A stretch of DNA of 64,000 bases from NCBI GenBank assembly GCA_010093815.1, contig ML996582.1. The stretch is one strand, 5' to 3'. Made by a program: the position numbers and the translations under genes. Below are positions 1,540-24,046 of this stretch, in pieces. The notes under the pieces are model-generated. The model ran no database searches and was not told where the DNA came from. It saw only the letters and a program-made list of their open reading frames with translations. Positions within the stretch are counted from its first letter, which is position 1; every line of letters starts with the position of its first letter. This DNA is from Pseudovirgaria hyperparasitica (taxonomy: Eukaryota).

Positions 1540-4500
1540 AGTACTAACTATAGAATAAGTCGGATATCTTATTATAGAATTAGAGGAATAAGTTATAGAG
1601 CTCTAAAGAGAAAATATTAAACTTAGAAAAGCTAAAGAGAGCTTTAAAAGAAAAATCCTAGAATCTTTTAAAGGTAAGCGAAGTAAACTCTAAGGATTTC
1701 TAATATAGATTAGAATATATCTCTAGACCTATTAAATTTAGAACCTAGAAGAATAAGTTATATTTACTATCGGACTACTAAAGGGAGATATACTCGCTTA
1801 GTTTAAACCCTACTTAAGGGACTTTATAGAAAATAATCTATAGAATTAATAGAATAATACTACTAAGATCTTTAAACGTTTTAAAGAATTTAAGGAATAT
1901 ATTAAAATAACCTTTAGAGATATAGATAAATAAAGAATAGCTAAGAGATAAATCTAGTAAATAGTCTACATAAAATCTATATCTAACTACGCCTCTAAAT
2001 TCTAATAAATCTCTAGTTAGCTAGAATAGGATAATAAACCCCTAATCCTCTAGTTCTATACTAGATTATATAACGACGTTAAGAACGAAATCTCTAGAGA
2101 GAGAGACTATTCTACTAACCTCTAAGAGTATATTAAGCTTATAGTCTAGATTAATAACTAACTATATAAGAGACGCTATAAGAAAAGAGGGAAAAAGATC
2201 TTTTAATCTATACTTAAATAAGATACTCGGAAGGGTTACGTTAATAAAGCCCTAAACTATCTATATAAGGGATTCTATAATAGACCTATACTAATAGAAC
2301 CTAGTATCTTATAGATAAAATATCTATCTAGTAAAGAAAGGGAGTAACTAAAGAAGGAAGGTAAGTATCTCTACTATAAAGAAAAGGGATACTACGCCCA
2401 CGAATACCCAAAAAAATAAAAATAAGAAAAACTAGATTAAGGACCTAGTATTAAGATAAGGAAACGTTACTATAGAAAAGAAAGAAGTACCTTACGTAGC
2501 CATGTTATAGACTAGTTATACTAATAATCTCTACTTTATATATAAGTTAGAAAAAGATAGTATAGGTTAGTATCTAAAGAAAAGAAACGTTTTAATAGCT
2601 AGTAAATAACCCTTATTACTTTATGAAAAAATAGAACTATAGAAATACTTAGATATAATAAGAAGATCTAAACTAACTAAAGAAATAGTATCTAAAGAAG
2701 TAATAATTAAAGGAAGTACTACTAAGGAAGATAGTAAGAAAGAAACCCTTACTATAGAAGAACTATATAATAAGTTAATAATAGACTAAGACCCTATTAC
2801 TTACTATATTATCTACTATTATAGAAAATATATAAGTAAGGATAATAGAGACCTACCTTTAAAAGGGGTAGAGATTTAACCGGAAGATAACTAACTTATC
2901 TTACCCTACTATAAGAAATATAATAAGATCTCTTAGATTATCTATCTCTATAATAACTATCTTTACTATCTTTATAAGAAGCGAACCTAGAAATAGTTTC
3001 TATAATAGTATTAGAATTAAAAGATTCTAAAAGCCTTTAGAGACGAAGATATATAATAGTATAAAATAATTACTAAGGAAGCTAATAAAAATTACTTTAT
3101 ATTAAAATAGATAGAAAATAAAGATTATCTAGAGAACTAATATAACTAATACCCGGATGTTACGTACCGAACTTATCTAATATCTAAGACTATTATATAG
3201 TATAACCTTTAAGTAGACTTAGGCGAAATTAAGAAACGAGTTTAATCTATAATATAACTTATATAGGAAATAGAATAGAAACTTAGTAAGCTATAAAAAA
3301 ACTAGAAAGGCCGGACGTACTAAGAGAAATAGCCGAGCTAAAAAGAAACTCTCTTATATCTATTAGTAGCTTAGATAATAAAATATAAATATCTCTTAAA
3401 ATTTAGCTCTATTAAAAATACTCTATTAAAGTACTAATTAATAGTAGAGTATAGTCTAACTTTATCTCTCTAACTATAGTAGATAAACTAAAAATACCCT
3501 ATAGTAGTAAAGAAGAACTATATAAATTATCTATATTTAAGAGACTTAATATAGAATATACTAATAGAATAGTATACTTAGAAATAGAACCTCTAGATTT
3601 AGTCTTAATAGTAGAATACTAATAACTACAACTAGATATAGCAGAGCTAGAATAATATAACTTAATTCTAGGAATACTATAGCTTAAAGAAGTTAACCCT
3701 ATAATTAACTAGAAAACTAAAGAAATTATACCCTAGAGAATATTAAGACCCTTAGAAACTATTAAAGAAGAAGTAGAGATTAATAAACCTATAAAGGCGC
3801 TAACGACTAGAAAGTCTATCTACTATATTTAGAAGCTTAATAATAAGTAAGGTAATATAGAGAGCGGACCCTTATATAAGAAATATATAGTATAATAAGG
3901 CACGCCTATAGATAAATAGATTTAAAAAATAAATAACATACTTATACTAAAGAAATACTACTAATATTATATTATCTTTAAAGAAGAACTTAAGACGGGA
4001 CTACTAAAGTATAGCCTATATAATTATATAATGATACTCTAACTAGAAATAGCATCTATATTTAAAAGTATATATCGACTTACTAAAAAATAACTAGAAA
4101 TAATATAATAATATATTAAGAAAATAGAAGTAAAAGGATATATCTAACCCTCTAAATTACCTATAGAATATCTAATACTCTTTATACTAAAGAAGAACGG
4201 AAGTAAATAACCCTATATAGACTATTAATACTTAAACGATATTACTATTAAAAATAGATACCCTTTACCCCAAATTAATAAATTATAGAACTAACTTATA
4301 GAAGCTTAGTACTTTACTATAATAGACTTATAAGAAGCCTATAATCTTATATATATAGTAGAAGAAGATAAATAGAAAATAGCCTTTTAGACTCGATATA
4401 GCTACTATAAATACCTAGTAATACTATTTAGGCTAACTAATATACTAGCTATATTTTAAGTACTAATTAACGATATACTAAGAGAATACCTTAACTACTT

Positions 4501-6790
4501 TATAATAGTCTACCTAGATAATATATTAATTTATTTAAAGAATCTATTAGAGTATAGAGAATACGTATATAAGGTACTTTAGAAATTATAAATAGTAAAT
4601 CTACTAGTAGAATTAAAGAAGAGTATCTTCTATATATAGAAAGTTATATTTTTAGAATTTAAGATTATATCTAGAGAAATATAAATAGACCTAAAGAAAA
4701 TTAAAGCTATTAAAAACTAGAAGTAACCTAAGATAGTTAAGGAAATCTAAGGATTTACCGGATTTATAAACTTTTATAGAAAATTTATATATAACTACTC
4801 TATAAAAACGGCTCTACTATATAAGCTTATAAAGAAAAATATAATATTTAAATAGAGACTAAAGTAAGAATAAGTATTTTAATAGTTAAAAGAGTCTATT
4901 ATAACTAAACCTATATTAAAGATATACTAAATAGGAAAACCCTATAAAGTTAAGATAGATATATTAGAATTTACTATCGGAGGGTAGTTAACCTAGATAG
5001 ATAAATAAGGGAAAAGATACCCTATAGTATTTTACTTCTAAAAATTCTAAGGATTAGAAATAAACTAGCTAATCTATAAAAAAGAACTCTATACTATTAT
5101 TAAATACCTTAAGGAATAGAGAAGCTACCTCTATAGATTAGACTATATAATAAAGGTATATACTAACTATAAGAATCTAACTACCTTTACTATAATAAAG
5201 GAACTCCGAAAGAAATAAATTAGTTAGTATAAGCTTCTTATAGAATTTAATATCTAAATTATATACTATAAAGAATCTAAAAACGGAAGAGCTAACGCCC
5301 TTAGCTAATAAGCGGAATACGAGTAAAAAGAACCTACTATAGAATAGACTATATTAGAGATTACTAAAGATAGAAACCTTAGACTAATATAATATATTAT
5401 AGTAATATAAAAAGAATTTATACTTAAGGACCCTAAGGGAAGAAGTATAATCCCTAGAGATAAGGTCTACTATTTTATTAAAGAATTCTATAAAGATCCG
5501 ATATACGGATACTAAGGAGAAATAAAAACTTATAAAAGATTTAAGAGATACTATATAACTTATAAGGAAAGATAAGTTATTAAGGAAGTTATATAGGACT
5601 ATATTCTATATAATAAAAGCTAATCTAATAGATATAAACTATATAGAGAACTCTAACTAATTCCCCTACTATTATATACTTAGAAAATAATCTCTATAGA
5701 TTTTATAATAGATCTACTACTCTTAAGAGAACTAGTCTTACGAGTATAGTATAATACTATACTAGTAGTAGTTAATAAACTTATAAAGTATATCTACTTT
5801 ATACCCTATTAAAAGAATATAGATATAGAAGAAATAGCCTATATATTCCTACGAGTAGTAATAGCGAACTATAGATTATCTAATAGTATTATATCTAATA
5901 GAGATAAGCTCTTTATATTAAACTTTTAGAAAAGCCTAGTACGATAGCTTAGAACGAGCTACTAACTATTAATAGTCTATTATCTATAGATAGATAGATA
6001 AATAGAGATTCTAAATAGAATACTAGAATAATACCTATAATACTATATTAATAAATAATAAGATAATTAGATAGAACTACTACTACTAGCTTAATTTACT
6101 TATAATAGTATAATAACCTTAATAACTAAAACCTTACCGTTCTATATAAACTATGGATTTAACCCTATAGCTAGCTATAATTATAAACTAGAATAGTCTA
6201 TACTAAAAGCGAAGATTAAGGTAGAATAACTATATAAACTATATTTAGAGCTATAAACTAAACTTTCCTTTATAAATAGAAGAATAGTAAAATATATAAA
6301 CTAAAAGAGAATAAAGAGACTATCCCTAAGGGGGGGAGACCTAGTATTCCTTATATAAAAAAATATTAAGATATAATAACTAAATAATAAACTAGACTTT
6401 AAAAAGATCGGACCTTTCTAAATAAAATAAAAAATTTTAGAAGTTAATTATAAACTATCTTTACCTTAGAATATAAGAATATACCTAGTATTTTATATCT
6501 TATTACTAGAACTAGTACTATATAATATAAAAGTTAAAACTAATATTAAAGCTATAGACGAAGAATTCAAAGTTAAAAAGATTCTAGAATCTAGAATTAG
6601 TAATAAAATATTAGAGTATCTAATTAAGTAGAAGGGCTACGGACACGAATTAAATACTTAGAAACCTAGGGAATATTTAATAAACTACCGGTAACTATTA
6701 CGGAAGTTCTATTAAATAAACCTAGATTCGCCTAGTTCTCTATACTAAGCTAAGAATTATTAAAACCTAAGGAAGGATTCGGAACCTTCT
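1540..6790 (+). pseudogene. gag-pol of Gypsy A (RIP-disrupted; limits approximate)
   Basis: Gag CCHC knuckle (~2366-2410, de-RIP CLYCKEKGHYAHEC); slippery AAAAAAC followed by TAG at 3296-3305; protease 'VLIDSGAQSNF' (~3431); RT 'KNRYPLP' (~4250) and 'YLDDILI' (~4511); integrase 'ISMDFI.DLP' (~5690) and 'GPF' (~6410); chromodomain 'EFKVEKIL..YLIKWKGY..NTWEP' (~6562-6667). Confidence 0.88.
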
Positions 6791-7319
6791 TAATAGTAAC
6801 TCTCTATTATTATTTAAATTACTCCTTCTTCTTCTTAAGGTCTATTACTAATAGATTCTAATAAAGTATATTATTTTAATAATATTCTAATAGCTTCTAC
6901 TATTTCTCTAAATACTCTAGACGCGTAAAGGCGGTCTAAGTATTCTACTAAGCTTTTTACTAAGTAGTAGCTATATATTCTTTCTCTAGCTTAAGATAAG
7001 CCTTTTTAGAATAAACCTTCTTATCTAGAAATATTACTTACTAGCCCTAATAAAAAGAAAGAAAACTTATAAGATAATTTAGAGAACTTCTTTTACATCT
7101 CCAAGAGGCTAACTTGGTCCATTCGGGGTAATATAGTAAGATATACACCTTAATCGATAGAGTATACCGAGTACACTAACTACTACTACACGCACGTACG
7201 TGCAGCGTCGAAACTAAGACGTTATCGCCGTGTAAAGATATATATATATACCCTCTTAAAATCCTTACGGAGATAGAGGCACGGACTACGCTACTAGAAC
7301 GCTAATACGCTGACCCCCT

Positions 7320-7352
7320 TTTATTAGTTAAGGGTAGCCCTTAACTAATAAA
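7320..7352. repeat. Perfect palindrome, 15-bp arms with 3-nt spacer, at the LINE ORF1 start
   Basis: TTTATTAGTTAAGGG-TAG-CCCTTAACTAATAAA; same core as 20196-20230. Confidence 0.9.
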
Positions 7353-10300
7353 TATGGCGGCCTTAGGCACCGATATACCCCGGTATATACCGGATATACC
7401 CCTACCGGTACGATAGAAAAGGCTATATAGCGATATTACTAAGGGTAACTATATACCTATCTAAAATATAGAATACACCTAAAGGCGCACGCCGCTATAG
7501 ATAGACGGAATAAAGGGGACCCTAAGAGGGGAAACCCTCCTAGATTATATCTACTACTAGGTAGCACGTATAGAGAAGGAAGCCGGAGAGGGCTAGAAGA
7601 CCCTTCTATATATATTCTAGAATCTTATCTAGAATCTAAAGGGAATTATAGAGGAGGAGAAGAGAATATAACTAGGAGGACCAAAGAGTAGGCTCGACCG
7701 AATAGAGGCTAGCCTACGTAGAATCTAGGAGGAACTTACTTAAGGTAAGCGCCCTAGTATATAGGTATAAATAGTAGTAATACTAGAGGCTATACCACGG
7801 GCCCCCCGGACCGGTAATATAGTATATAGTATACGCGTCGTAATCTAGGATAAGGATACCCTAGTATAGGTCTAGTAAGTATCCCTAAAGGATATAGTAA
7901 GTAAGATTAATAAATAAAAGGGAATATAGTTAAACGTCATCGCTACTAAACTCATGCTAGGAGGAGTAGTACTTACTATAATAACGAATATTACGTAGTA
8001 GACTATCTCGCGCGATCCGAACGCGATTAGTAGTATCTTCCTAGGCGCCTCTATTAGGGCGGCCATATACCCGATATAGGTATACTCTATACCCGTAAGC
8101 GGATAGGTTATCGGAGAAGAGAATATTACGCGGATAGAATAGTTAAATAAGCGAAAATACCTAGAGATTAAGATCGTAAGAGTATGGTAGAAGAATATAT
8201 AAGGGATTAAAACTAGATTAAAGGTATACTCTACTATAATAGTAGAGCTTAAGAACCCCGCCCTTACGTATTAAATTATATAAGAGGGATTCCTAGCGGA
8301 AGGGGAGCTTCTTATAGCGGAACTATAGGATAGAGTATAGGCGATAATATAGTGCTTTAACTATTAGGGATACGGGTATACGGTATAGCGGTACTCCTAA
8401 AAGACTAGGTATAGATAGTATTAATAAGAATATAGTACCTAGGAGTGCCTCTATAGAACACGAGGAGAGGGCTAGAGGGATAGGGACACGGCGAAGTACT
8501 CTAACTACGACGGTAAGTACCCGTCGTAGTCGACTACGTGCACGAAACGTAAATAGATTACTAAATATATCTACTTAATCCGGATAAAGGGAGTAAGGTA
8601 GCTATAAATAATACGACCTACTACCGTTCCTCTCTTTACTATAATACTACTACTATAGACTACCTCCTTACGAGAAAGCGGTTAGAAATAGTAAACTATC
8701 CCAAGAAAGCTAATAATAGAATAGCCCTAAGGAATTACTAAGGCCGCCGCCGTATAAGGATAGTCGCGTCTTAGAGGAACGAATATATAGGTCTATATAT
8801 TCCCTAGTACCTAATAAGAGACTAAGATATACTTCTAATTATATAGGTAAACGTATAGTATAAACGTAAGAACTAGGCGATACTCCTTAAGGAGACCGGA
8901 GCTATAATACTCGCTATATAGGAGCTATATAAATACTACCAGACGAATAAACTAATAACACACCTAGAATATTATATAATACACCCCCTAGGACCGGAGA
9001 GGAGAGTCCTCTTCTATGTCCATAAGTCTATTCTACTCTTATTATAGTTATATACTAAACGGGATAACCTCCGGATAATACTACACCTCTAGACGAATAT
9101 CGGACCCCTCTATATATATAATATATATAATTAGAACCGATTGCTTTAGGCGGATGATATACTTAAGGGCACTACTAAGCTAGAATAATATATCCTCCTA
9201 GAAGACTTTAACCTCTATTATAGCTAGTAGGGTAGACTAACCGTTACCCGCAAAGAGCTTCGAGCTAGAGAACTACGTACCTAATACTACGGCTTTCTAT
9301 ACCTTCTTATACTAGTAGAATAGATTACCTAGCGAAAATATAAATAAGATAAGGGCGGATCTACACTCGACCTTACCCTAGCCACTAGACATATTTATAA
9401 TAGGACTTAATACTACTGCCTAAGCCTTATATAGATAGACTCTAACTATAAATATATGGAGACCGTAATAGATGTATCTACCCCTTAAGACTAATAAGGG
9501 CGATAGCTATAGAAGAATACTAACTAGGAAAAGTACCTAAAGGACCTAGAATCGACGATTCTAGACCCGTCTATAGTTGACGTATCTAATAGCCCGGCCA
9601 TTAACTAGGCCGTGAATATACTCCTATAGGCGTACTAGGGAGTAAGAGATAAACACGTGCCGTACCGAATATATAGACTCCTAGACCCGAAAAGTATACC
9701 TTAAGTATAAGAGTATAGGCGAGAAGTCCGGAGATTATATACACGCGTATACTATAACTGTACACCTAAAGCATAGGATAAATAGAGAGAGGCGAGAAGA
9801 TAACGAGATAAGGTCCTCCGTAACGAGCGACGTAAATAGTAGTATATAGTCACGGACTAATATACACGTAATACTACTAGACTATAGTATATAGTAAAAT
9901 AGGCCAAAAGCACCGCCTCCCTAACACCTATACCACTTATACCCCCCCTTATATATTAAGAAAAGACGTACTCTATAAGCCTCGAGAAAACAGAGATTCT
10001 ATAAGAGGTTATATTCCCTCTCCTAGAACCTATAGACCTATTAGATATTAACGGCACGGAATACCCGGAAGCCGTGAGTATCCCTAGGGAAATCACGGAT
10101 AATAATATACTCGGCGCTATTAAGACACTCCCGAACGATAAAGCGCCCGGACTAGATAGAATTCCGAATCGATACCTTAAGAGGACCATATAGGCGACCT
10201 TACCGATTATAGGCTATATATTCCGAGCGTGTGCCCGTATAGGATACTACCTATAGAGCTTCTAAACTATATATATAGTTATACTCCTAAAACCAGGGAA

Positions 10301-10961
10301 GAGCCTAAACACGCCGAAGGGATAGAGGCCGATCGCCCTTCTCTTCTACCTTGGCAAGGTACTAGAAGCTATGATTACTAAGAAGATAAGTATAGTAGTA
10401 TAGGTACACGGCCTTCTCCTAGTAAACCAGAAGACGAAGGTAGGAAGCTCCCTAATTATAGCTATTTAATATATCCTCGAGGTTATCTAGACTATATAGA
10501 AATAAGGATAAGTTATTACGCTACTCTCCCTAGATATAGTAGAGGCGTTTAATAAGGTAAACCATATAAGACTTATCTATAACCTCCGGATAAGGCGAAT
10601 ACCTAAGTAGATTATATAATTTATATAGTCCTTCCTCGCGTAAAGGACTACTTAAATATATATCCCCGGATACCGAAGCGAATATAAGGAGACAGTATAC
10701 GGCATCCCATAAGGGAGTACCATCTCCCCAATCCTCTTCCTCTTCTTTATAGTAGACCTCCTTTAGAGAATAGAATATATAGAGGTAGTCGGATACGCGG
10801 ACGATATATACCTCCTTACGGTCGATAGTAGTACTAGTAGAACATGTATATGACTCGAACGAGACCACGAGAAATACGTCTAGTAGGTAAAGCGCCACGG
10901 AGTAAAATTCGCACCTGAAAAATACTAGCTTATATACTTTATCAACCGCTATAGAGAATAG

Positions 10962-11199
10962 TATAAAGAGTAAAGACGTGGGATAGTAGTCTAATAGTTC
11001 ATAGAGAGATATAGGAATGTATTTATAGAGTAATCTTACTCTTATACGAGGTTAATTCCTAACGAGTAGAAATCGGTTTATACGGTCTACTTATATAGTA
11101 ACCTCGCTTAACTTAGCTAACTTAACCTAGCTCTAGCCACTACGTGGCTATATAGATTAGAATAGTCTATATAGGTCTATTATAGTTCCCGTCCTAATA
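10962..11199 (-). repeat. 3' LTR of Gypsy B
   Basis: Direct repeat of 18807-19044; differences seen are transitions. Confidence 0.95.
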
Positions 11200-11678
11200 A
11201 TATCCTTCTTCTTTTTATGCTTCGCCCCGAAGTACTTAAGTATATATAATTCTAAGTCTCTATAATCTATCATGTATCTATATATCCGTAACTAAGTTTC
11301 TATAACGTTATAACTATCCTTAATATAGGTAAACTCGAGATTCTAGTTTACTTTTACTAGTTTATATACGCGCTCATCCCTTACTTCGTGGCTACTACCT
11401 AGAATATATAATTACTACTTTAGTTGAGTATATATTTAGCTTCGCTCGCCTTTAATTTTATTCTCTAGTATATCTACCTCGCTCTTAAGGTAAGTCGTTA
11501 ATTTATATACTATCTTCCCTAGTTTAGGTTTAGAAGGGTCTATAGTGGTCTATTCTTATTAGAACCGGTCTAATATAACCTATTCGCGTTATTACGGTCA
11601 CTAATTTAGCTTCGTTAATCGCCGTTAAGGGTAGATAAATATTCCTTCCTTAGATCTCTAGCTAACGTATATATATAG

Positions 11679-12991
11679 ATGTCTAATACTAGTCCTATCT
11701 CTAAGCCTACCTCCTCCTCTTATAAGACTCGCTCTAAAGGTATCGCCTCCTCCCTAGCTACGCCGGCTAAGAAGCCTATCTATCGCGGTAGTATAAAGGC
11801 GCGCTCTAAGTCGGAGAAGAGAGTAGCTAGGGCTACTACTACTACTACCTCTACTACTAATATAGCTACTAGTCACTCTAATCTAGGTGATCCTAGTACT
11901 AAACTTATGGATAAAGTGGTTATAGGTTCTCCTCTCGCTCTAAAGCGTACGCCGTCTACTCTACCTCCTCTAGAGGATAAAGAAGATCTTGTTATAGACG
12001 ATAATCGTGAGCCCTCGCGCTCACCCACGCCACTACCTTACCGCTCTTCCTTCCGGTCTAATATAGACCGATTTAGTCGCTCTAGGTCCTTTTAGGACCT
12101 TAATATTCGCTCTAAACCCTAGCCTACTAATAATAAGGCCTAGATCACTAAGGATACTAAACGTAGTCGCGGTTTATACTATAGGAAAACGGCGAACTAC
12201 GGTTCGATATACTATAAGTATATTAAGGGCTATACGGCTAGCTCTAAATATCTCTTTCGCTCTAACTCTAGTATTAGCTACTACTCTACTAACCGCGACG
12301 GGTCTATACGCCCTATCTTTACTCTATCTACCCGCTACTACCGCTATACTATAACTAGTAAGACTTATCTATAGGTAAGTATAATAGGCTATCTTAATCT
12401 AGTATAATCTAAAGTAGTCCGCGCTAATATATTCTTAGGTTCCTATATATATATAAGATATATATAATAACCTTCGCGTCCGTAAGACCCTCGGGGGTTC
12501 TTATAGCTATCTATCTACTATATAGAGGGAGTTTAGGGAGTACTATAAGCTCTTCCTAGAGGTTATTAAAGTATAAGTTATAAGTACGTTAATTATTTTT
12601 AATATCTATTAATTTTTCTAGCCGCCGCGAGATCCCTAGCGCCTAGGCTATCTATTCTAGGGAGTCTATTCTAGCTATAGAGGCCGTAGAGAGGATTTAC
12701 TCTATCCCCCCCCGTCCGTCTTACGCTATTAATAGATCTTATAAGAGGTCTACTATTTCTCCCTCTAAGTCGCCTCGTAAGAGGGTATATATTCCCTTCT
12801 AGATTATTCTAGATTATATTAGCTAACTTTAGACCTAGTCACTACGCTCCGGCGCTTAAGGCTCTTCCCTCTAGGCTCTAATGGATTAGATTATTACTCT
12901 AGAGGCTAAGGTCGTCGTCCTCCGCCGCTATATCGTACGGTTAGAGAGGACTATACTAGAGGTTAGGATAGATAATAAGATAGAGGAGTAG
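11679..12991 (+). pseudogene. Antisense accessory gene of Gypsy B: Ser/Thr/Pro-rich N-terminus, Cys-cluster-like region, C-terminal coiled coil; spliced
   Basis: 138 codons still open from ATG 11679. The same frame continues to TAC-x2-TAT (12210-12221) and TAC-x2-TAT-x6-TAT (12336-12368), then an intron GTAAGT..GCTAAT..TTAG (12375-12438). A possible second intron lies at ~12571-12621. The last segment reads 'MDQIIALEAKVVVLRRYIVRLERT..EE*'. Confidence 0.55.
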
Positions 12992-13080
12992 CTCTATGGT
13001 TCTAGCTCTATAGGTTTGGCTCTATATATTAGCTCTATGGTCTAGCTCTATGTATTGGCTCTATGCCTAGCTCTATGTAT
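12989..13080 (+). repeat. Degenerate tandem repeat, about 7 copies of a 12-14 bp unit with core T(A/G)GCTCTAT
   Basis: Read directly; begins at the stop codon of the antisense gene of Gypsy B. Confidence 0.85.
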
Positions 13081-13519
13081 TCTGGATCTACTATGGGTAG
13101 TGCGCGCCGGCTCTATTTACCTAGCTTTTATCCGTTTTAGTCCTTTTTAGACCGTTTAGATACCCGTCGGCTAGTTTCTAGTAATTTAATTCTTAACTTA
13201 ACGATATTATATGTGCGCTCGCTTAGCTTATAACTATCGGTTTCTATATTCTAATTTTCCTTAAGTTACCTAAGTGTAGGTACCGTATATAAATTAGTTT
13301 ATCTCTATAAATTCTATTAGAGTACCCGAACTAGTAGCCTAGTAGTTATTAGTTCGGGTACTCTAACCTTTTATATTTTATATTAAGAGTTTAATTCTAT
13401 AGTAGGGTACCTTTTTTTAGGTTCTTAGTTCTATGTTTTTCTCGTATATAATAGTCTATATTAGTCTATTCTAGACTCTTCTATATTATTCTATTGTGGT
13501 ATATCGCGTCGCGTTCCTA

Positions 13520-16500
13520 AAATGGTTATTTACACTTTCTTCGCGTCTAGTAACCGTATAACGCTTGAATTATAGGGCTGCTATATAGAGTTTTCCTAGT
13601 GCACGTCTAGATTTCCTAGTTTAGTACTTCGTTCTCTACGGTATCCTTCTTCTTTTTATAACGACCGCGACGTCGCTATACTTATATTAATAATACGCTA
13701 TTCTATATCTTTTACTTATACGCAGCCATTATAGAACTTAAGATATATACCGCTAGTTCCTAGGTGTCCTTATCCTTAGTATAGTCCTTCTAACGGATTC
13801 TATATTTCTAAATACCGTCTTTATCGATCCTATATTCGATAATATAGTCCACTTTAAACACGTCTAGTCTATCTTAGGGTATAATAGAGTATAACTATAC
13901 GTTCGTATAGCTATACACGTTAGGTCGAAATCTTTTAAGTAGTAAGACGTGGAATATATTATAGATTCTTATATCGCTTCCTAAGTTAAGCTCGTAGACT
14001 CTTATACCAATATAACGTTTGATTCGGAAGGGACCAGCCATTTTATAATCGAGCTTTTTATTTACTCGCGACATTTATATATTATAGATATTAAGAAGGA
14101 CCTCGTCGCCCTCCTCGTACGTCTAATCCTTAGCTAATCTATTATAGTACTTCGTATACGAGTCGTTTACTTATTAGATTATAGTACGATAGTTATATAC
14201 GGTTTCGAAGATTTTAATTACTAATTCCTAAGCGTGGACGTTCATATCTATTATTTAATTAAATTAGACCGTCTAAGGCTTAAAACCTATCCTTAGACTG
14301 CGTCCGAGGTTCGCCTAGAAAGGTATAATATCTATCATACTATAACGACTATTATTATATATGAACTCTACTATACTTAGTAGGGAGGCCTAGTCATCCT
14401 ACTCGAAATTATAGAATACGCGTAGGTAGGCCTCGAGTGTCTAGTTCTATCGCTCTATCTAGCTATCCGTCTAAGAATAAAATACTATAGATATATCTCT
14501 ATTTATACTTACTATTTCGTAGAATAACGTCTAGAATTTGGATATAAAGGTACTTCCTCGGTCCGTAACGATCCTTTTTAGTATACTATAGACCTTAATA
14601 ATCTCGTTCTAGAATACCTACGCTAGTTCTTTAGATATAATCGTCTTCCACACCGGGATATATCTAGATATCTTTATAAGTCTATCTATAATAATAAGAA
14701 TAGAATTATAACTTATTCTAAGTATCTCGCTTAGAGATAAGTTAACTATAAAGTCTATAGTAACGTCTTTCTATATAAAGAGGGGGGCTAAAAGAGGCTA
14801 TAAATTCCTATATAGCTTATGCCTAGGGGCCTTCGTTCTTTAATAAATCGGATAAGTAGCTATCTATTCTTTAATGTACTTAGATATATCTTTCTAAAAA
14901 TAGTACTAACGAATTAAGCTTAGGGTACGTATATACCTAAAGTATCCTACTAGGTTAGCGTTATGGTATTAGCTAACTATATTAAATCGCGTGTTACCCG
15001 TTAGTATATAGTACTTTCTATTATAGTAAAGTAAGCCGTCTATAAAGGTCTACTTATAGTCTACTTTAGTCCGTAATAATCTATCTTACTATATTTTATG
15101 TAACTTTAAAACTATTAGGTCTATCTTCTATAGATCCATAATTAACTAGGTAAGGTTAATTAGATATTCACGCTAGGTATTATCGCCCTTCCCGATAGCG
15201 CTAATAAACGGTCTACTAGGGACTTCGGTACCGCGTCTTTAGTTACCGGCTTCGGTCTTAGAGATTCGATTACTAGCATCGATATTAGTATCTTACTAAT
15301 CGCCTAATAACTTAAAATCCAACCTCGTCCTTAAGAGTTAGGTCTATAGCTACTCTAGGACCCTATAGCTACTATAATCCTAGGCGCCTTCTTCATAGTT
15401 AGGTCTTCTTAATATTCTATTAGCTAGGTTTATACTTCTAGGTTAATAGTAGATTATAAAGTGAAAGTTCGTAAGCTACTTAGCCTATTAGACCTATTAA
15501 TAGTTTAAAACTATCGTGCTTATAAACCCCTTTAAGTTATAGTAATTAGTTAGTAACTCGACGTTATATATAGTACCTTTAAGATAATATCGCTACTATT
15601 TAAACGACTCTACTATTACTAGTAGCTCTTAGTTATAGATAGTATATCTAGTCTTAATATTAACTATTTTACGTAAGAAGAACGTAACTAGATACTATTA
15701 GACCTTTTTAGACTTAGTTAGTCTAGACTAGGAGAGAATACCTAAGATTATAAATCCTAACGCGTCGGTTTCGACGTGGATAGGTTTAGTTAGATCGAAG
15801 TATACTAGTAATAGGGCAGTTATAAATGCCTCTTTAATTTTCTTAAAGGAGGCCCTTTCGCCTTCCGATAATTCTATAGACTATAATTTAATATTACGCT
15901 ATTTCTATCTACCGCGGACCGTAATAGACGAATCTATAGTAGTAGTACGCGCGTTAAGTAGTACTACTAGCCGGGAGAAATACTTAACGAATTTTCAGTA
16001 GTAATTAGCAAATCCAATAAAGACACGTATATCTTAAACTAATTTTAGTTTAGGCTAGTCTATAATAGTAGCGACCCTATCCCTTTCTATGGTTATACCT
16101 TAATTAGTAATAACGAAGCTAAGAAAGTTAATATAGTTCTAGTAGAACTCGTATTTAGATAGCTTAATATATAGCTTATGTTTTTCTAGCCTATCTAGGA
16201 CTACGCGTACGTGCTAGATATGTTCTTCTTCGTTATTAGAGAAGATAAGGATGTTATCGAGGTATATAATGCACGTCGTGTTAAGTAGGCCTACTAGCGC
16301 GTTATTAATATACGCTTAGAAGGTTCCTAGCGCGTTAGTTAGTCTAAAAGGAACCACTATATACTCGAAGTATCCATAACGGGTCCTAAACGCCGTTTTC
16401 CACTTATCGCCCTTCTTAATATATAGGCGGTAGTAGACGTCGCGTAGATTAAGCTTAGTAAAGATCTTCGCGCGCCCTAGTCTATTAATAGACTCGGAGA

Positions 16501-18760
16501 TAAGAGATAGTAGGTAACGATTCTTTCGTGTAATATTATTTAGGCTATAGTAGTCGATATATAGATAGAGACTTCTATCCTTCTTCTTTATAAAGAGGAT
16601 TAGAGCTCCGGCTAGAGATATACTAGGTCTAATCTATTCTCGCGTAAGGTTCTTTTCGATATATTCTCGGAGGACCTATAGCTCAGGTTCTAATAGAGGG
16701 TATATAGGTCCATATAGAGGTTATTAACGGTCTTCGAGGTTAATAGTAAGATTAGTAGATTAGTATTAAGGTAATTTGGACGAGTCGATCGCTAACGCGA
16801 TATATTAGTATATTTTATACTAATATAGTAGGTTTTCGTCTACTTTAATACTAAGCTCTCTATTTTAAGTAAGTAAGAGGATGTAGATAGCGGAGATTAC
16901 CTTTTCGTAGTCCTTCTAGAATTATTCGTCGTCGACTAGCTATACTAGGTTCTATTATAGTAGGTATATATGCTAGCCAGCTGTTTTCTAGATAAAGTCT
17001 AGTTTCGGGTTATATTTTTTAAGCTATAGTATACTAAGGATCATGTCGAAGGGACTATCTACCATAATAAAGGTTAAGTAGTAGGGTTTCCACTTCCCCC
17101 CGCTATCCTAGATACTATATTTAATAGTATAGGTACCCTATAATTTAATAGGACTATCGATACTATAGAAGGTAATATCTATTAGTACTTAAATATCGAC
17201 GTTAAGTTCTCGTGCTCGTTAAGTTAATATAACGTTAGTAGCTAAACCGCTATCGAGCATTATGGTCTAGTATTATCCACGAGAGACCTTAATAGGCCTA
17301 GCCTATAGTTTAATATACTAGTTAGCTAGTTATCCCTCTATTTTAGTTACGCCTATAAGTCGCGAGGGTTCCTTATAGATAGTTAGTTTTTTATATTATA
17401 TACCGGGTAGTTAGGCGCGATATATTCTAGCTACTAGCACTTATAGTATATAACTAACTTAGTATCTATATTAGTATTTAGTAGTTTCCCTAAGCGGCAC
17501 TCGGGTACTATATAGCCTATCCTACTATAGGTATAGTAGGTAACTTTAGGTCGTTTATATAAGTCGTTTCTCGCGTCTTAATATATCGACTAGTAGAAAG
17601 ATCCGTAGTACGGGCCTTATCTTCTCGAGTTCGTAGAGTAGTAGCGCCCACGAGGTATTCCGCGCGATCTATTACTAAACCGGTCCTCTTTAGATAATTT
17701 TACATTAGATTAGATTAATAGAGATAGTCGTGCGTCTATACGACGTTAGTTATTTATTATATACTAATGTTATTCTATAAGATTCGCGAGTACCTAAAGG
17801 TTAGTAGAGATAGACGTTATAAGGTCGATGCGTTCCTTTATACTCGGGTTAAGGGACCTTTTAAAGTCATCGCATTATCGAACTATATAATCTTCCTTAG
17901 CTTCTCTCTAAAGAGGTCGGAGGTATTTAAGAAGTTATAACGGGGATTATCTCTCTCGCTATTAAGTCTTAAAGATATAGCTCTAAGCCTATTCGCGTCG
18001 CTCGGCTCTATTACCGAAGTATTAAAGAAGGAATTCGGTAAACGTGTCCTAGTTATACGCATCCTTAGAGTATTTAATTTAATATACTATCTAACGTTTA
18101 GATGGCGTTAGGTCTAGATAGTTCTATATAAACCTAATCTTATTACTATCGTTCGGGAATAGGTAGAAGAATCGGCTATACTAGTAAGTCTATTTATAAA
18201 AGCTCCTCCTAGTTTTACTATTAAAGTAAGGTAGTTTCTTAGGCTAAGGTAACTAGGATAGTAATAGACTTAGTTAGACTATTTCGGCTTAAGTTAGTCT
18301 ATATTAGTATAGATTAGTTACTACTAGCACTAAAGCGCGTAGTACGGCTTCAAGTCTAGCAGTTCATCCTCACGCTTTATCAAGTTCACAAAGTTACTAC
18401 TCGAGCTAAGCCTAACGCTACCTCTCCGCGTATAGCTTAGTATATATATTATTATAAGGCGTGGTTAACGTTAGTCGGTTCTAATAAATTAATTCGTTAA
18501 CGTTAATAGGGTCTAGTCTTATAGTAAGGATAGGTCTAGTATAGTATAAACTAGACCGCGATGGAGTATAATAGACTCCTTCCTTATTATCTAGGTAATC
18601 TTCCACGGTTATACGGAATACTATACTAGTTATTAGTACGATAGCCTATAGAGTATACTTATTAGTAGAGGTAGTTATAGGGAGACTATTCTCTTTATTT
18701 AGATTTAGAGAGAGTCTCTCGTATAAGGTAGTACTACGGGTATTATAGCGCGTAGTAGGA
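13520..18760 (-). pseudogene. gag-pol of Gypsy B (RIP-disrupted; limits approximate)
   Basis: Gag CCHC (de-RIP CYTCGRIGHIAPEC, ~17495-17540); slippery GGGAAAC (17490-17484); protease 'MLDSG' (~17250); RT 'YLD(D)ILI' (~16244-16264); integrase 'AGPF' (~14030); chromodomain 'FEVD.IIEHR..YRIRWKDY..DTWEP' (~13755-13860). Confidence 0.88.
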
Positions 18761-18806
18761 GCTATCTCTATAAGCTACTATTATACTATATAGAGAGAAA
18801 TTAAAA

Positions 18807-19044
18807 TATAAAGAGTAAAGACGTAGGATAGTAGTCTAATAGTTTATAGAGAGATATAGGAATATATTTATAGAGTAATCTTACTCTTATATAAGGTTAA
18901 TTCCTAACGAGTAGGAATCGGTTTATACGGTCTACTTATATAGTAACCTCGCTTAACTTAGCTAACTTAACCTAGCTCTAGCCACTACGTGGCTACATGG
19001 ATTAGAATAGTCTATATAGGTCCGTTATAGTTCCCGTCCTAATA
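18807..19044 (-). repeat. 5' LTR of Gypsy B
   Basis: Direct repeat of 10962-11199. Confidence 0.95.
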
Positions 19045-20195
19045 GATAGGCTACTAGGGAGGGGGCACGTCGCCTCTAAATCGACGCCTTTATAGAACCA
19101 CTAGTATAGAGCATACAAGTACTCGGCGTCATGATTAATAATAAGCTAAAATAGGGACCATAGGTGGTACACGCCGTCTCTAGAGCTCTCTAGATAGAAA
19201 CCACTATACGCCGGATTATAGTATCTACGTAGAGAATAGCCCGGGATAAGGCGAGATAGCTATACGTCTCCCTAGCACGCCTAGCCTTTATATATAGATA
19301 CGAGTACTAGTACACGGCCCTTATATAAGCTCGGCAGGTAAAGCTTAAGTCTATATAAAACCGTATACTCCGCCTTATCTCTAGCGTATATAAAGCTACT
19401 AACACGACGCTCCTCTAACGCGAGATAAATATAACAAGTATATAGGACTTCTACTAGATATAGAGACTTATATACTTTACTAAATAATAAGTATAAGAAC
19501 GTAGAGAAGATAGGGTATATACCTTCACTATACTACGTACACGTATCCGCGCGTATTACTAGGCCCTCCCTACTATAGAATAAACTCGAGTATAATATAA
19601 ATACTATATAGAGGCGGACTCGAGCTAGACCGCGTAGAAGGTTCAAAATAACCTAGATACCGTCCTAAGCTAATAGAGCCCTAAGGAGCTTAGCCGCGTT
19701 ATACAGTCATAGATCTAGAATAAATAGAGAGAGATACTTAAAGCCTAGTGGGCCTCCTAATAGGATAGGTATCTAGAATAGATCCGAGGGCCTTAGAAGG
19801 AACTAAGTAAATAGATATATAAAGGGCTAACGAAGGCCTAAGTATCTATACTCCTCTAAGCCCGAATAGGCGCTATAGATCTCCTATATTACCTCTACTA
19901 GAGAGGCGTCCTAGATATATCTCCCTAGTGCGAGGACTATAGCCGGAGAGATATAATACGCCACTACCTCGCGACGTGCTCTAGCCTCTATACTCTAAGA
20001 TAAGCCCTCGTCCGTATAATAAGGACCTCTAATATTATATAATAGCTTAATAAGTACCCTAAGGACGTCGCCCGATAGATACTTATATACCTTCCTCTCC
20101 TCTAGTTCTAGTAGACCCGCGTATATATACCGGAAGAAGCCTAATATATACCGGAAGAACCCCGGTATACGTCGGAAGAACCCTAGGAGAACCGC

Positions 20196-20230
20196 GATTA
20201 TTAGTTAAGGGCAGCCCTTAACTAATAATC
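20196..20230. repeat. Perfect palindrome, 16-bp arms with 3-nt spacer, at the LINE ORF2 end
   Basis: GATTATTAGTTAAGGG-CAG-CCCTTAACTAATAATC; preceded by three ~21-bp repeats with core CGGAAGAA (~20123-20185). Confidence 0.9.
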
Positions 20231-20814
20231 TCCGTACCTACACGTGCTGGCTAAGGGTAAACCATTATAATATAGGCTATAGGCCTATAGGTAGCCCCTA
20301 GGGCTATATATATATAAAGAACGAGAGGATAGATAGAGCGTAGTTATGGATATAAGGGAGTTTTTCCTATTCATAGGTTTCTTCTTATATAGTAGCTTAG
20401 ACTAGAGGAGGCATGCGCCTATAGAGTGGTACTCTACCTAGTTTACTAATATTATTATTATTATTATAAGATAATTTACTTAAAGTCTTAATCCTATACT
20501 TACTTACTAAATAACCTTAATAAATATACTCTAAATACTTATCGGACTTTATAAATACCGCCCTATAGATTAAGCTATACTTCTTATAAAATAAGTAAGG
20601 GAAAGGTATCTTATTACTCTTATAATTAATTAAGATAGATAAAGTAACTCTCTATTTCGCTAGATTAGACTTAGAAGACTTAACTAATTTTATAACCCTA
20701 GATATAATAAAAGAAAAGAAAGAAGGGCTCCTTACTAAAGGAAGTTAGAATAACTCTCCGCTTATAAGTAGCTATAGAAGTACTTTAGGATAAAGTACCT
20801 TAGGAGAGATATTA

Positions 20815-21343
20815 TATAATAAATTACTAGCTAGAGCTATAGAAAGATACGTAGACTCTAGTACGAGTAGTATAAGAGATAGTATAATATATAAAAGAGA
20901 GGCCTATAATATAATAGATAGCCTTAGATAATAATCTAAGGCTAAGGTAGATACCTATAGGGAGAGCTAATTATAGATACTTAGAATAGATATTCTAAGT
21001 AGCCTACTAGATAATTAAGAATAGAATATTAGTATTCTAAGTAATATACTAAATACTTAGAATAAGTATTCTAATTAGCGGACCTTAGTAGAACTATATA
21101 GACCCTTTAGACCTAATCTCTAGAGATAGTTCTATAGTAATTAATTTAAACTTATACTATTATAATTACTACTTTACTTACCTACTAGCTAGTTACTATT
21201 TATACCCTATTAATACTTACTATAAACCTACTTATACTCCTCTAAGCCTTCTAAGTATCTTTATCTATAGGAAAGCTAGAATACTCTATATAATAGACTA
21301 CTTTAGGGATAAGCCGTATCCTTAGTAGAAAAGGTTTATTATA
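20815..21343 (+). repeat. 3' LTR of Gypsy A
   Basis: Direct repeat of 908-1436. Confidence 0.95.
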
Positions 21344-24046
21344 GGTAGCTATACCGGTAAAAACTTTAAGAATCTAATAATAGCTATACTTAAGAGATAG
21401 AGGATCGAAGATAGAGTTAGCTACTTCATCCTTAATAGAGTAAGTAATAATACTATAGCGGTGGAACTCCTTATAAAGGAACTTCCTAGTATAGGTAAAT
21501 ATTCACGTCTTTATTACTTTCTATACTACCTTAATCTTATCGCCTAGGCGCTTCTTTTTAGTAAGGATAAGAATATATTTAATAAGTTATCTAAGGATCT
21601 TATCGCCAAGCTTACCTTCCTTTAAGAATAGCGGAAAAAAGGTCTAATTATAGTACTCTAGTCTATTATCTACTTTATCTATTACTCTACTAAGAGACGC
21701 TAGAGGTTCGAGGCTATATAGAAGAAGATTTATAATAAGAACACGCTTATAAAGGATATAAAGTTTATCCTAGTTTAACTAAAGAAGCTAGTTAAGACGC
21801 GCTAGAATAGCTATTACGACTTCATGGAGCGTAGCCTTATATTATAAGCTATAATTAATAAGTTTATTAAGGAAATTCTCTTCTAAAGTTAGCGACGTAG
21901 TAATCTATAGTAGTCTAACCGAGATCTCTTTATAGATACTAAAGATAAAGACTCTAATAATAAAGTAGTTAACTTAGCGAATAGAATCCTATTATTTATT
22001 ATAGAAGGTAGACTTAATAACTATAACTAGAGTATTATTTATATATACGTTAATACTCTCTTATCTATTAAGAAAGTACTTCTATAAACTAAAGAAAGAG
22101 GCTATAAGGCTAATTATAGAGTAATCTAGTAAATTCTTCTATTAATATGCTTCCTAGAATTATACTTTAATAACCTTAGGTTTTCTAAATCTACTTCTAT
22201 TATATCTATCGGTAAAGTATAGCCTAATCTACCGCTTAAAGACTATTTATAGATTATAATTAATAACATAAGAAGTAAGCTAGTAAAGTACTATAACCTA
22301 GTAAAGGAAAACGTTATATATTATACTACTATATATCTTTATTCTATATAGAAATACTTCTTTAAGTAAGATAATAAGGATCTAATAGACTTATATCTAT
22401 AGGTATTACGAGATAGCCTAAAATTAGACTTTCTTATACTCTATTACTTATACTAATCTCTATTACCCTTCTCGCTACTATCTCTACCTCTTCTAGTTAT
22501 ATAATCTCTACCTTAGCTATTATAAGTAGAGTAATACTTAGATAAAATAAAGATAAAGGGCCCTAAAAGGTAAGAGGAGAATAAGCTAAGTATCTATCGT
22601 CGCCTTAATAGTAAGTCTAATCTTATAGATAGTCTAATCTAGTAGTAGCTAGATAGAAAGAATAAGTTTCTTTACCTTTATAAACTTATAATTAACGTAC
22701 TCTCTATACTAGCTTTAAGCTATAATAATAAATATATATTTAGTAAGATAGAAGATATAATTATACTATAACAAAGTAAGATAAGCCTACTATTAATTAG
22801 CTATCTATAAGATTTAAAGAGTTAGTAGTATTATAGCCTTATCTATAACTAGTAGCTTACGTAAAAGTATACTAGTTAGTTTCTTATTAAATTTAGATGA
22901 TTTAGTACTTAAATCTACCTAGGTATATACTAAGGCGTACGAAAATCGACTATATAGTCTTAAATATATGATATTTTAACTATGTTTACGAGATTCTTCG
23001 ACTACCTACTAAACTTTAGTTTAACTTAGTTAACTTTAATTCTACTACTAGAACTAATAGTTTAGTTTAAATATATAGTAGGGTAAACTAAAGTACTTTA
23101 GTTTAACTTTAAATATAGGCATAGAATTGAACTGATTGTTTGATAGGAAGTCTGCTCACACCTCAACCTCACCCCCTGACCATGCAAACACCACAACATC
23201 ACACGCCTAAAAGCGCACTTAAAGTCAATTGTATTAATTATATCAAGTATCACCATCACTATCGCCCTCTCTGCATCACTGTCATCGATACATACCCATC
23301 GTTTCTCAATCCCAAGTTACGACCCCAGCCCCTTTCTCGTATTCAAATACGAAAAATCCACACGGCCCCTTGAACTTCCACCATCCGTGGCCCCGGCTCT
23401 TCCACTATATCCCTATCCCTATACACAATGAGAAACTCTACAATCAACCCCAAAACGGTGTATATCCATCAATCCATCTCTGTCCAGCGTCGTCGTAGTA
23501 TCACAATATTCTATAGCACATTGCCTATCTCTGCTGTATAGATATGTTACGTGTATACACTCACATACACGATCACGCCTACAAGTATACAACTGCGGAT
23601 AACGCCATACATGTACAGATAATGGAAGATATAAGCAGATCATAGATCGCAAAATAGTGCATAATGACATTGCTAGACAAGAGGTCGAGAAAGAGGTCGA
23701 GAAGGATTGTCTTCTTTAGGTTGATCTATTGATTATGAGAAGGAATGAGGAGAAAATAGAAGAATTGGTATTTTCAAGGTAGGGGCTACATACAGGAGTC
23801 CAGAGGTATACTACATCGTCGCCGCCATTGACGAGTAGCCAGGAACTAGAGATCTCAGAGGCCTCATGACGTATCGAAGAGCGCGTATGTGGGTAGCAAT
23901 ATAGACATGCGCTGACGAGCGAACGACGTACCTCACCAGGACATGAAGACGAGCGCTACTCCGAAGCATATCTCGCTCTCGGGACTCGTACTCTTACCGG
24001 AGCGTATCCACTGCCTGGCGAAAACAATACAATACGACACAATCCA

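Follow-up and report, generated by a model that had tools for sequence, protein, structure and literature searches.

We analysed a stretch of 64,000 nucleotides from Pseudovirgaria hyperparasitica (GenBank assembly GCA_010093815.1, contig ML996582.1), hereafter the window, with a focus on an open reading frame (ORF) inside one of its transposable elements. This element, here called B, is a complete Ty3/gypsy element on the minus strand, probably a chromovirus, nested in other retroelements and mutated by repeat-induced point mutation (RIP). Between its pol gene and its 3' long terminal repeat (LTR), on the opposite strand, lies a reading frame at 11679-12374. In our judgement this segment is probably the first exon of an accessory gene, antisense in the element, that was killed by RIP. 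An earlier interpretation made from the letters alone, the sequence-only reading, had proposed a longer, spliced gene at this place, ending at 12991.

Element B is flanked by a target-site duplication of 5 bp, seen by alignment as AATAG at 10957-10961 on the left and GATAG at 19045-19049 on the right, the two copies differing by one transition. The 3' LTR (10962-11199, minus strand, 238 nt) is 95.8% identical to the 5' LTR (18807-19044, minus strand, placed by LTR alignment). The termini of the 3' LTR read TA...TA, the expectation for TG...CA after RIP. Adjoining the 3' LTR, the alignment shows a polypurine tract (PPT) at 11200-11228, on the minus strand and pyrimidine-rich on the plus strand. 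The pol domains identified with Pfam, all on the minus strand, are SH3_Tf2-1 (13928-14110, E=1.9e-10), Integrase_H2C2 (14828-14992, E=9.3e-5), RNase H (15572-15865, E=2e-13) and reverse transcriptase (RT; 16112-16555, E=7.1e-18). Near the end of pol there is a weak match to the chromodomain PF00385 (13742-13858, minus strand, E=0.03; 14.7 bits against a cutoff of 25.1), a domain that is present in relatives. Pol ends at about 13615, and about 2.4 kb extend from there to the PPT.

The ORF sits in this spacer, between the pol end and the PPT/3' LTR boundary (11200/11199), on the strand opposite to pol. It begins with an ATG at 11679, followed by 138 open codons up to a TAG at 12093-12095. Three more TAGs interrupt the frame between there and 12374, where a last TAG stands immediately ahead of a GTAAGT. 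The presumed exon relic (11679-12374, plus strand) is composed of a Ser/Thr/Pro/Lys-rich N-terminal part, intact to 12095, then three TAGs of the RIP type and a Tyr-rich domain. Our mapping of the ORF and of pol agrees with the sequence-only reading as to the start codon, the 138 open codons and the antisense position.

The frame is unusually open for this DNA. Its stops number 1 and 3 per 100 codons over 11800-12399, compared to 1-11 in the genuine pol frame of B and as many as 22 in other frames. Among 1000 dinucleotide shuffles of 11679-12374, none contained a 138-codon ORF (maximum 126) and none had four stops or fewer in any frame (minimum 6). TpA dinucleotides are also strongly phased, mostly across codon boundaries, with counts of [4,12,43] (p=4e-10) and [17,6,32] (p=9e-5). 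For comparison, TpA phasing in the RT region of pol gives p=2e-4, and it is absent from the LTRs and the remaining spacer. The interval from the PPT to the ATG (11229-11678, plus strand), by its position a candidate antisense promoter or 5' UTR, has no coding signal by TpA phase ([31,29,30], p=0.97).

The same data have to be weighed against a chance ORF. On this view the RIP-mutated spacer would be noncoding filler containing microsatellites and tandem repeats, and the frame, Tyr run and GTAAGT would all be accidents of a C/T-rich, TpA-poor stretch. Long chance ORFs do arise in this RIP-mutated DNA, which speaks for caution: a minus-strand ORF of 173 codons at 10530-11051 runs antisense to the RT of a long interspersed nuclear element (LINE) and about 90 nt into B's LTR. 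Since it spans the LINE/LTR junction, it is a chance or mirror ORF with no ancestral gene. Also in favour of chance, a (CTA)13 microsatellite (11833-11871, plus strand, a Thr/Ser run) within the ORF gives period-3 structure, and is a caution on the coding signal as a whole. Further, the mirror minus-strand frames are fairly open too, and GTAAGT-like sites are frequent (65 in 46 kb). On the other side stand the shuffles, none of them as open as the observed segment, and the TpA phasing of p=9e-5, which holds in 12096-12374, outside the microsatellite.

The openness of the mirror frames leads to a second possibility, namely that the minus, element-sense strand is the coding one, with a 3' extension or a third ORF of B there and the plus-strand ORF as its mirror image. 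Mirror frames of coding DNA tend to be open, the minus frames here have 3-6 stops per 100 codons, and sense-strand ORFs do follow pol in some relatives of B. Against this, no frame is as open as the plus frame, which begins with an ATG; translated, the minus strand gives a nonsense-like series of Arg, Ser, Gly and Val; and the splice signals and Cys junction described below lie on the plus strand, as they do in relatives. We regard minus-strand coding as very improbable.

The 3' part of the exon holds 14 Tyr in its last 70 codons, which puts it at the 99th percentile among windows of 70 codons taken from the RIP region (Tyr makes up 8.7% of B's pol frame). Each TAY codon among them can be derived from TGY or CAY by a RIP change at TpA. 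The putative former Cys/His cluster (12210-12368, plus strand) comprises Y-x2-Y at 12210-12221, further Tyr, and Y-Y-R-Y-x6-Y at 12336-12368. With Tyr read as Cys, the layout is C-x2-C-x38-C-x2-C-x6-C. The Cys cluster of the sequence-only reading is thus a Tyr cluster in the present-day sequence: the spacing is as it was described, and the residues are Cys only under the assumption of RIP.

Two codons after the last of these Cys positions begins a candidate phase-0 intron of 64 nt (12375-12438, plus strand), with GTAAGT at 12375, CTAAT at 12424-12428 and TAG at 12436-12438. All three signals of the proposed intron were located.

Two other readings of Cys positions were rejected. A full Zn2Cys6 domain in B was discarded because only the last triad has canonical spacing and there is no match to PF00172; Y-x2-Y-x6-Y at 12336-12368 is the only part with Zn2Cys6 spacing, and the nearest upstream Tyr pair is 17 residues off. 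A gag zinc knuckle in YYKYIKGYTASSKY (C-x2-C-x4-H-x4-C) was rejected by eye, with its spacing off by one and no gag-like context.

To place B among other elements, 15 pol matches were aligned, and this alignment was used to retrieve 78 metagenomic loci related to B's pol. In a tree of RT sequences (quick search, LG+G4, SH-aLRT support), B groups with L001, L003 and L004 (SH-aLRT 98), inside a clade of 11 rows (97) that adds L002, L025, L051, L005, L050, L019 and L052. The branch of B in this tree is long (0.79) and its composition is skewed.

B, L001, L003, L025 and L051 have a junction in common, namely C-x2-C-x5-7-C, two codons and a phase-0 5' splice site, in the case of B only if Tyr stands for a former Cys. 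It reads CESCTGATNC-LE then GTAGGT in L001, CGRCMLMNSEC-LA then GTAAGT in L003, CDRCMRTKSGSC-VE then GTGAGC in L025, CDRCNKGSESC-EL then GTGAGT in L051, and Y-Y-R-Y-TITSKT-Y-L-stop then GTAAGT in B. This places the proposed intron of B at the same point as in these four relatives. The second spacing of the triad is x6 in B, x5 in L001 and x7 in L025, and the distance from the upstream pair to the triad is 38 residues in B, 37 in L001 and 35 in L025. In L001, L003 and L025 the frame stays open for at least 39 codons past the predicted acceptor, within the 170 nt shown.

The simple motif C..C.{6,7}C was found in spacer ORFs of 12/32 loci on the antisense strand, against 6/32 on the sense strand and 9/32 in an antisense-of-pol comparison. 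This enrichment is only about threefold, therefore the composite of triad and splice site was used instead. With Cys or Tyr allowed, the composite (triad, two codons, GTRRGY) has a single match over the two strands of window positions 1-23000, at 12374, where about 0.08 would be expected by chance, given the 54 triads and 65 splice-like sites counted over 46 kb. With Cys only, the composite matches seven times on the antisense strand, in 7/78 loci, and never on the sense strand. Within the clade of B, the junction is present in 4/7 members with sequence beyond pol. The junction coincides with that of clade relatives, has no second occurrence in 23 kb and keeps to one strand in the relatives. 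Together with the shuffles and TpA phasing, this argues against a chance ORF, which we judge unlikely.

Looking at the relatives more widely, their pol-to-3' LTR spacers range from 78 to 4104 nt. Many loci have spacer ORFs antisense to pol, and several clades have canonical introns in the antisense orientation. Two homology groups were recognised among the antisense ORFs, one with L017, L024, L029, L032, L049 and L075, the other with L036, L044 and L045. The gene of L017 has a Ser/Thr-rich start, a long helix-like region of Glu, Lys and Arg, and an intron (GTAAGT ... GCTAAC ... CAG). The part after the intron has CX2CX6CX11CX2CX6C, then a run of basic residues (SPRGGEKRKKKK), a helix and, at the end, a tail of acidic residues. 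The Zn2Cys6 pattern is found in L017, L032 and L034. For L013, L036 and L044, the intron lies between the two Cys triads, and intron places are conserved. The 5' splice site of this intron is GTAAGT in L036 (9485 region) and ATAAGT in L044 (5197 region), the latter suggesting that L044/L045 is a decaying copy.

In terms of known domains, Pfam assigned no family to 12 of the relatives' antisense ORFs. The Zn_clus model (PF00172) matched the L017 cluster at E=0.036 and 14.6 bits, below the gathering score of 21. The nearest Atlas cluster of the relatives' proteins carries the automatic name Zn(2)-C6 (score 0.93), which is a lead only; with the L001 exon, an Atlas search returned nothing usable. 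AlphaFold2 gave a mean pLDDT of 60.6 for a protein of the L024 type, with only the helix at 111-154 predicted confidently and the Cys region at 53-63.

The ORF of L024 has 143 database homologues, among which only some hypothetical proteins from Scleroderma citrinum carry a name; these are 307-340 aminoacids long and have the same layout. At least seven hypothetical proteins of this species are homologous (P0152, P0189, P0198, P0199, P0210, P0218 and P0238); these are probably transposon genes counted as host genes. Between diverged copies, dN/dS in the antisense frame was 0.14, 0.21, 0.23 and 0.39, with one further pair saturated, and was below that of any opposite-strand frame. As far as sequence can tell, the ORFs of the relatives are real antisense, spliced, protein-coding genes under purifying selection.

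A different clade (L026, L028, L038 and L040) shows homologous ORFs after pol on the sense strand (MSTTATV..., MENHHLRCS...). These would be a separate kind of additional ORF.

Several results weigh against reading the segment in B as a relic of such a gene, and the first concern its own sequence. Reading Tyr as Cys in the motif test is an assumption, and Tyr is common in translations of RIP-mutated DNA. The full Zn2Cys6 pattern CX2CX6CX5-12CX2CX6-8C does not occur in B. No Pfam match was obtained for the two proposed exons. An exhaustive phmmer search with the 232-aa read-through translation returned 0 matches at E<=0.001 among 1.84 billion representative proteins, and this failure to find a homologue also favours a chance ORF. 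As a control, B's RIP-mutated RT/RNase H, read through likewise, matched 225 proteins. Identity was about 45-50%, and E-values for fungal-type pol proteins went down to about 1e-105. Therefore RIP alone does not conceal a conserved protein.

Others concern the comparison with the clade. B's ORF has no significant protein similarity to the relatives, and the antisense ORFs of L001, L003 and L025 are themselves mutually dissimilar by blastp (E<1e-3). In a RIP-aware alignment, where TpA was reverted to CpA or TpG and the best BLOSUM score was taken per codon (a procedure that inflates scores), the Tyr-rich segment of B reached z 2.9 with L001 and 2.8 with L003, and control ORFs did equally well. 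Furthermore, the junction is absent from L005, L052 and L002, which have short spacers and lack the gene; the antisense gene is therefore not universal in B's clade. What links B to its relatives is where the ORF lies, its strand, its motif and the place of its intron; alignable sequence plays no part.

The last group concerns the downstream part. The sequence-only reading had continued the gene through a second exon with a terminal coiled coil (12439-12991, plus strand), which our data do not support. Stop density in 12439-12991 is at background (6-8 per 100 codons), TpA phasing there is none (p=0.26), and RIP-aware alignment with the downstream exons of the relatives revealed no resemblance. 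A word-seeded protein database search with 12440-12991 gave 0 matches at E<=0.1. The proposed stop at 12989-12991 is, moreover, out of frame: its codon start is 2 mod 3, the frame of 12440, and a phase-0 splice from 12374 to 12439 needs 1 mod 3. The exon proposed for 11679-12374 remains, in our view, the probable remnant of the antisense gene after these points are counted.

In a third explanation, the segment would have come from elsewhere, either captured from a host gene or nested here as part of another element, and would have no relation to the antisense genes of the relatives. Transduction of host fragments by LTR elements is established, the N-terminal part of the ORF is of low complexity, and it has a weak match (E=4e-4) to a Ser/Thr-rich host region at 46-47 kb. 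Contig pieces from public runs (X1-X4, of which X1 and X2 are one sample) were aligned to window positions 10500-19500 at 80% likeness or more. All 30 bins were covered, the spacer included, with few indels and almost exclusively transitions over the ORF region. Spacer depth is of the same order as pol depth and no recurrent joints occur beside 11679-12374, which fits an integral part of the family and speaks against capture. So do the missing protein database match for B's ORF and the position, strand and intron junction common to the clade relatives. We find a captured fragment improbable, and the antisense exon of B itself the better account.

The same alignments describe the family further. 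Family B and the LINE are highly repeated, with 30,866 contig pieces in X1 and 10,894 in X2, and differences in X1 fall at 501 transition places versus 20 transversion places. The runs X3 and X4, from another sample under the same species label, have only 3 and 0 pieces. This contrast may reflect an isolate difference in repeat content, or an effect of assembly or filtering. Contigs of the same organism contain a joint from 10956 to 19045 that skips 8088 positions, plus a loose end at 10961, therefore LINE copies without B exist. Directly after the proposed end of the ORF there is a tandem array in the pol-LTR spacer (12989-13081), with 3.5 copies of a 26-nt unit. Contigs of other copies have joints here from 13000 to 13041, 13011 to 13068 and 13029 to 13068; since 38-56 nt are skipped, the number of units differs among genomic copies.

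As for the setting, window positions 1-23000 are AT-rich with a strong RIP signature throughout: TpA/ApT is 1.5-2.0 and (CpA+TpG)/(ApC+GpT) is 0.00-0.28, compared to 0.65-0.67 and about 1.25 at 24001-26000, outside the repeat nest. Self-comparison revealed two pairs of repeats, the LTRs of B and those of a second Ty3/gypsy element, A (900-1437 and 20805-21344). Elements were placed by Pfam search of read-through translations. The pol of element A (about 4184-6709, plus strand) has RT, RNase H, SH3_Tf2-1 and a weak chromodomain. The LINE, a non-LTR retrotransposon (about 7100-20470, plus strand), is marked by RVT_1 (E=2.6e-18 in 9600-10958), a weak endonuclease match upstream and an (ATT)n tail near 20450-20470. 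Because of this placement of the pol of A, the RT of the LINE and the pol of B, the order of the nest is that A encloses the LINE and the LINE encloses B (window 900-21344). All three members are RIP-mutated, A most heavily (GC 0.22-0.29).

The sequence-only reading had also attributed the same architecture to element A. The interval between its pol and its LTR is occupied by the nested LINE, itself holding B, therefore the spacer that belongs to A is only about 0.65 kb (about 6710-7100 plus about 20470-20805). Between A's pol and 3' LTR, nested LINE included, 14 minus-strand triads were found and none (0/14) has a splice-like site within 36 nt. A tblastn search with B's two proposed exons against the rest of the window gave low-complexity matches only. 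The idea of a recurrent antisense Cys-cluster module holds through the 78 metagenomic relatives, and falls as far as it drew on element A.

Antisense genes at this position are known from other elements. For Boty, a chromovirus of Botrytis and Sclerotinia, papers describe a gene called brtn that lies antisense in the interval from pol to the 3' LTR (PMC8365987, PMC7264820, PMC4227169). As described there, brtn resembles the ORF of B in being an extra antisense gene between pol and the 3' LTR of a fungal Ty3/gypsy chromovirus, a likeness by description only; brtn may itself belong to the zinc-cluster antisense family. Among plant Ty3/gypsy elements, Retand (with a TRP28 domain), Grande1 and RIRE2 are reported to have additional antisense ORFs in this interval (PMC11963269, PMC7264820). 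By position and strand, B falls in the aORF-3R class formed by brtn, Retand, Grande and RIRE2. The 26-nt array of B is also reminiscent of the tandem arrays described for the stretch from pol to the 3' LTR in plant Retand elements. The plant elements differ in belonging to non-chromovirus lineages and in encoding other protein domains, whereas the fungal relatives have a Cys cluster with Zn2Cys6-like spacing and short introns. The gene of B looks like a zinc-cluster variant of this known antisense-ORF class, dead in this copy. In the accessible portions of openly available papers, including PMC3248453 and PMC2864245, we found no zinc-cluster antisense gene with conserved introns in fungal LTR elements. 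The module had been called under-described; this is fair for the zinc-cluster gene of fungal elements, and less so for the antisense position, with brtn of Boty already in print.

The proteins of the relatives resemble fungal Zn(II)2Cys6 factors (Gal4-type, PF00172): their CX2CX6CX11CX2CX6C is followed by a stretch of basic residues, a long helix and a tail of acidic residues. They differ in that the domain is central or C-terminal, not N-terminal, in being carried by retrotransposons, and in matching the Pfam model below its cutoff. Another parallel would be HBZ of human T-lymphotropic virus type 1 (HTLV-1), an antisense, spliced bZIP factor transcribed from the 3' LTR, whose expression and function are experimentally established. 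HBZ could be compared as a gene that lies antisense at a retroelement's 3' end, is spliced and encodes a nuclear, DNA-binding or dimerising regulator. It differs in that there is no homology, in being a bZIP protein of a vertebrate retrovirus, and in that the chromovirus gene is known here from its sequence alone.

On this basis, the gene in intact relatives would be transcribed from a start close to the 3' LTR, in the direction of pol, and its transcript spliced. Being antisense to the element's genomic RNA, the introns would not be lost in retrotransposition, as expected from established retroelement logic. The N-terminus of the predicted product is disordered and rich in Ser/Thr; the product also has a Cys domain resembling a zinc cluster, a run of basic residues and a long helix, joined in some clades by an acidic tail. 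This layout is suggestive of a small Gal4-like nuclear DNA-binding regulator. Its most likely role would be to bind DNA, possibly the LTR of its own element, and to modulate the transcription or chromatin of the element. Only tentatively do we extend this to the proposal that several fungal chromovirus clades, in basidiomycetes and in this RIP-competent host, encode their own antisense, intron-containing, Gal4-like zinc-cluster regulator by the 3' LTR. The copy in this window is a fossil without function.

Lastly, the ORF of the window is no live gene but a fossil within a nest that RIP has inactivated, and annotation should not list it as coding sequence of the host. Extra genes of retrotransposons are rare clues to the dealings between element and host. 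If chromoviruses encode a zinc-cluster DNA-binding protein, many annotated fungal "hypothetical" or "Zn(2)-C6" proteins would be transposon genes. Should brtn be a member of this zinc-cluster antisense family, the module would be both old and widely distributed. The regulator, if real, would be to fungal retrotransposons what HBZ and similar antisense regulators are to retroviruses, and intact copies, e.g. the paralogues of Scleroderma citrinum, would allow a direct test of its control over the transcription or targeting of the element.

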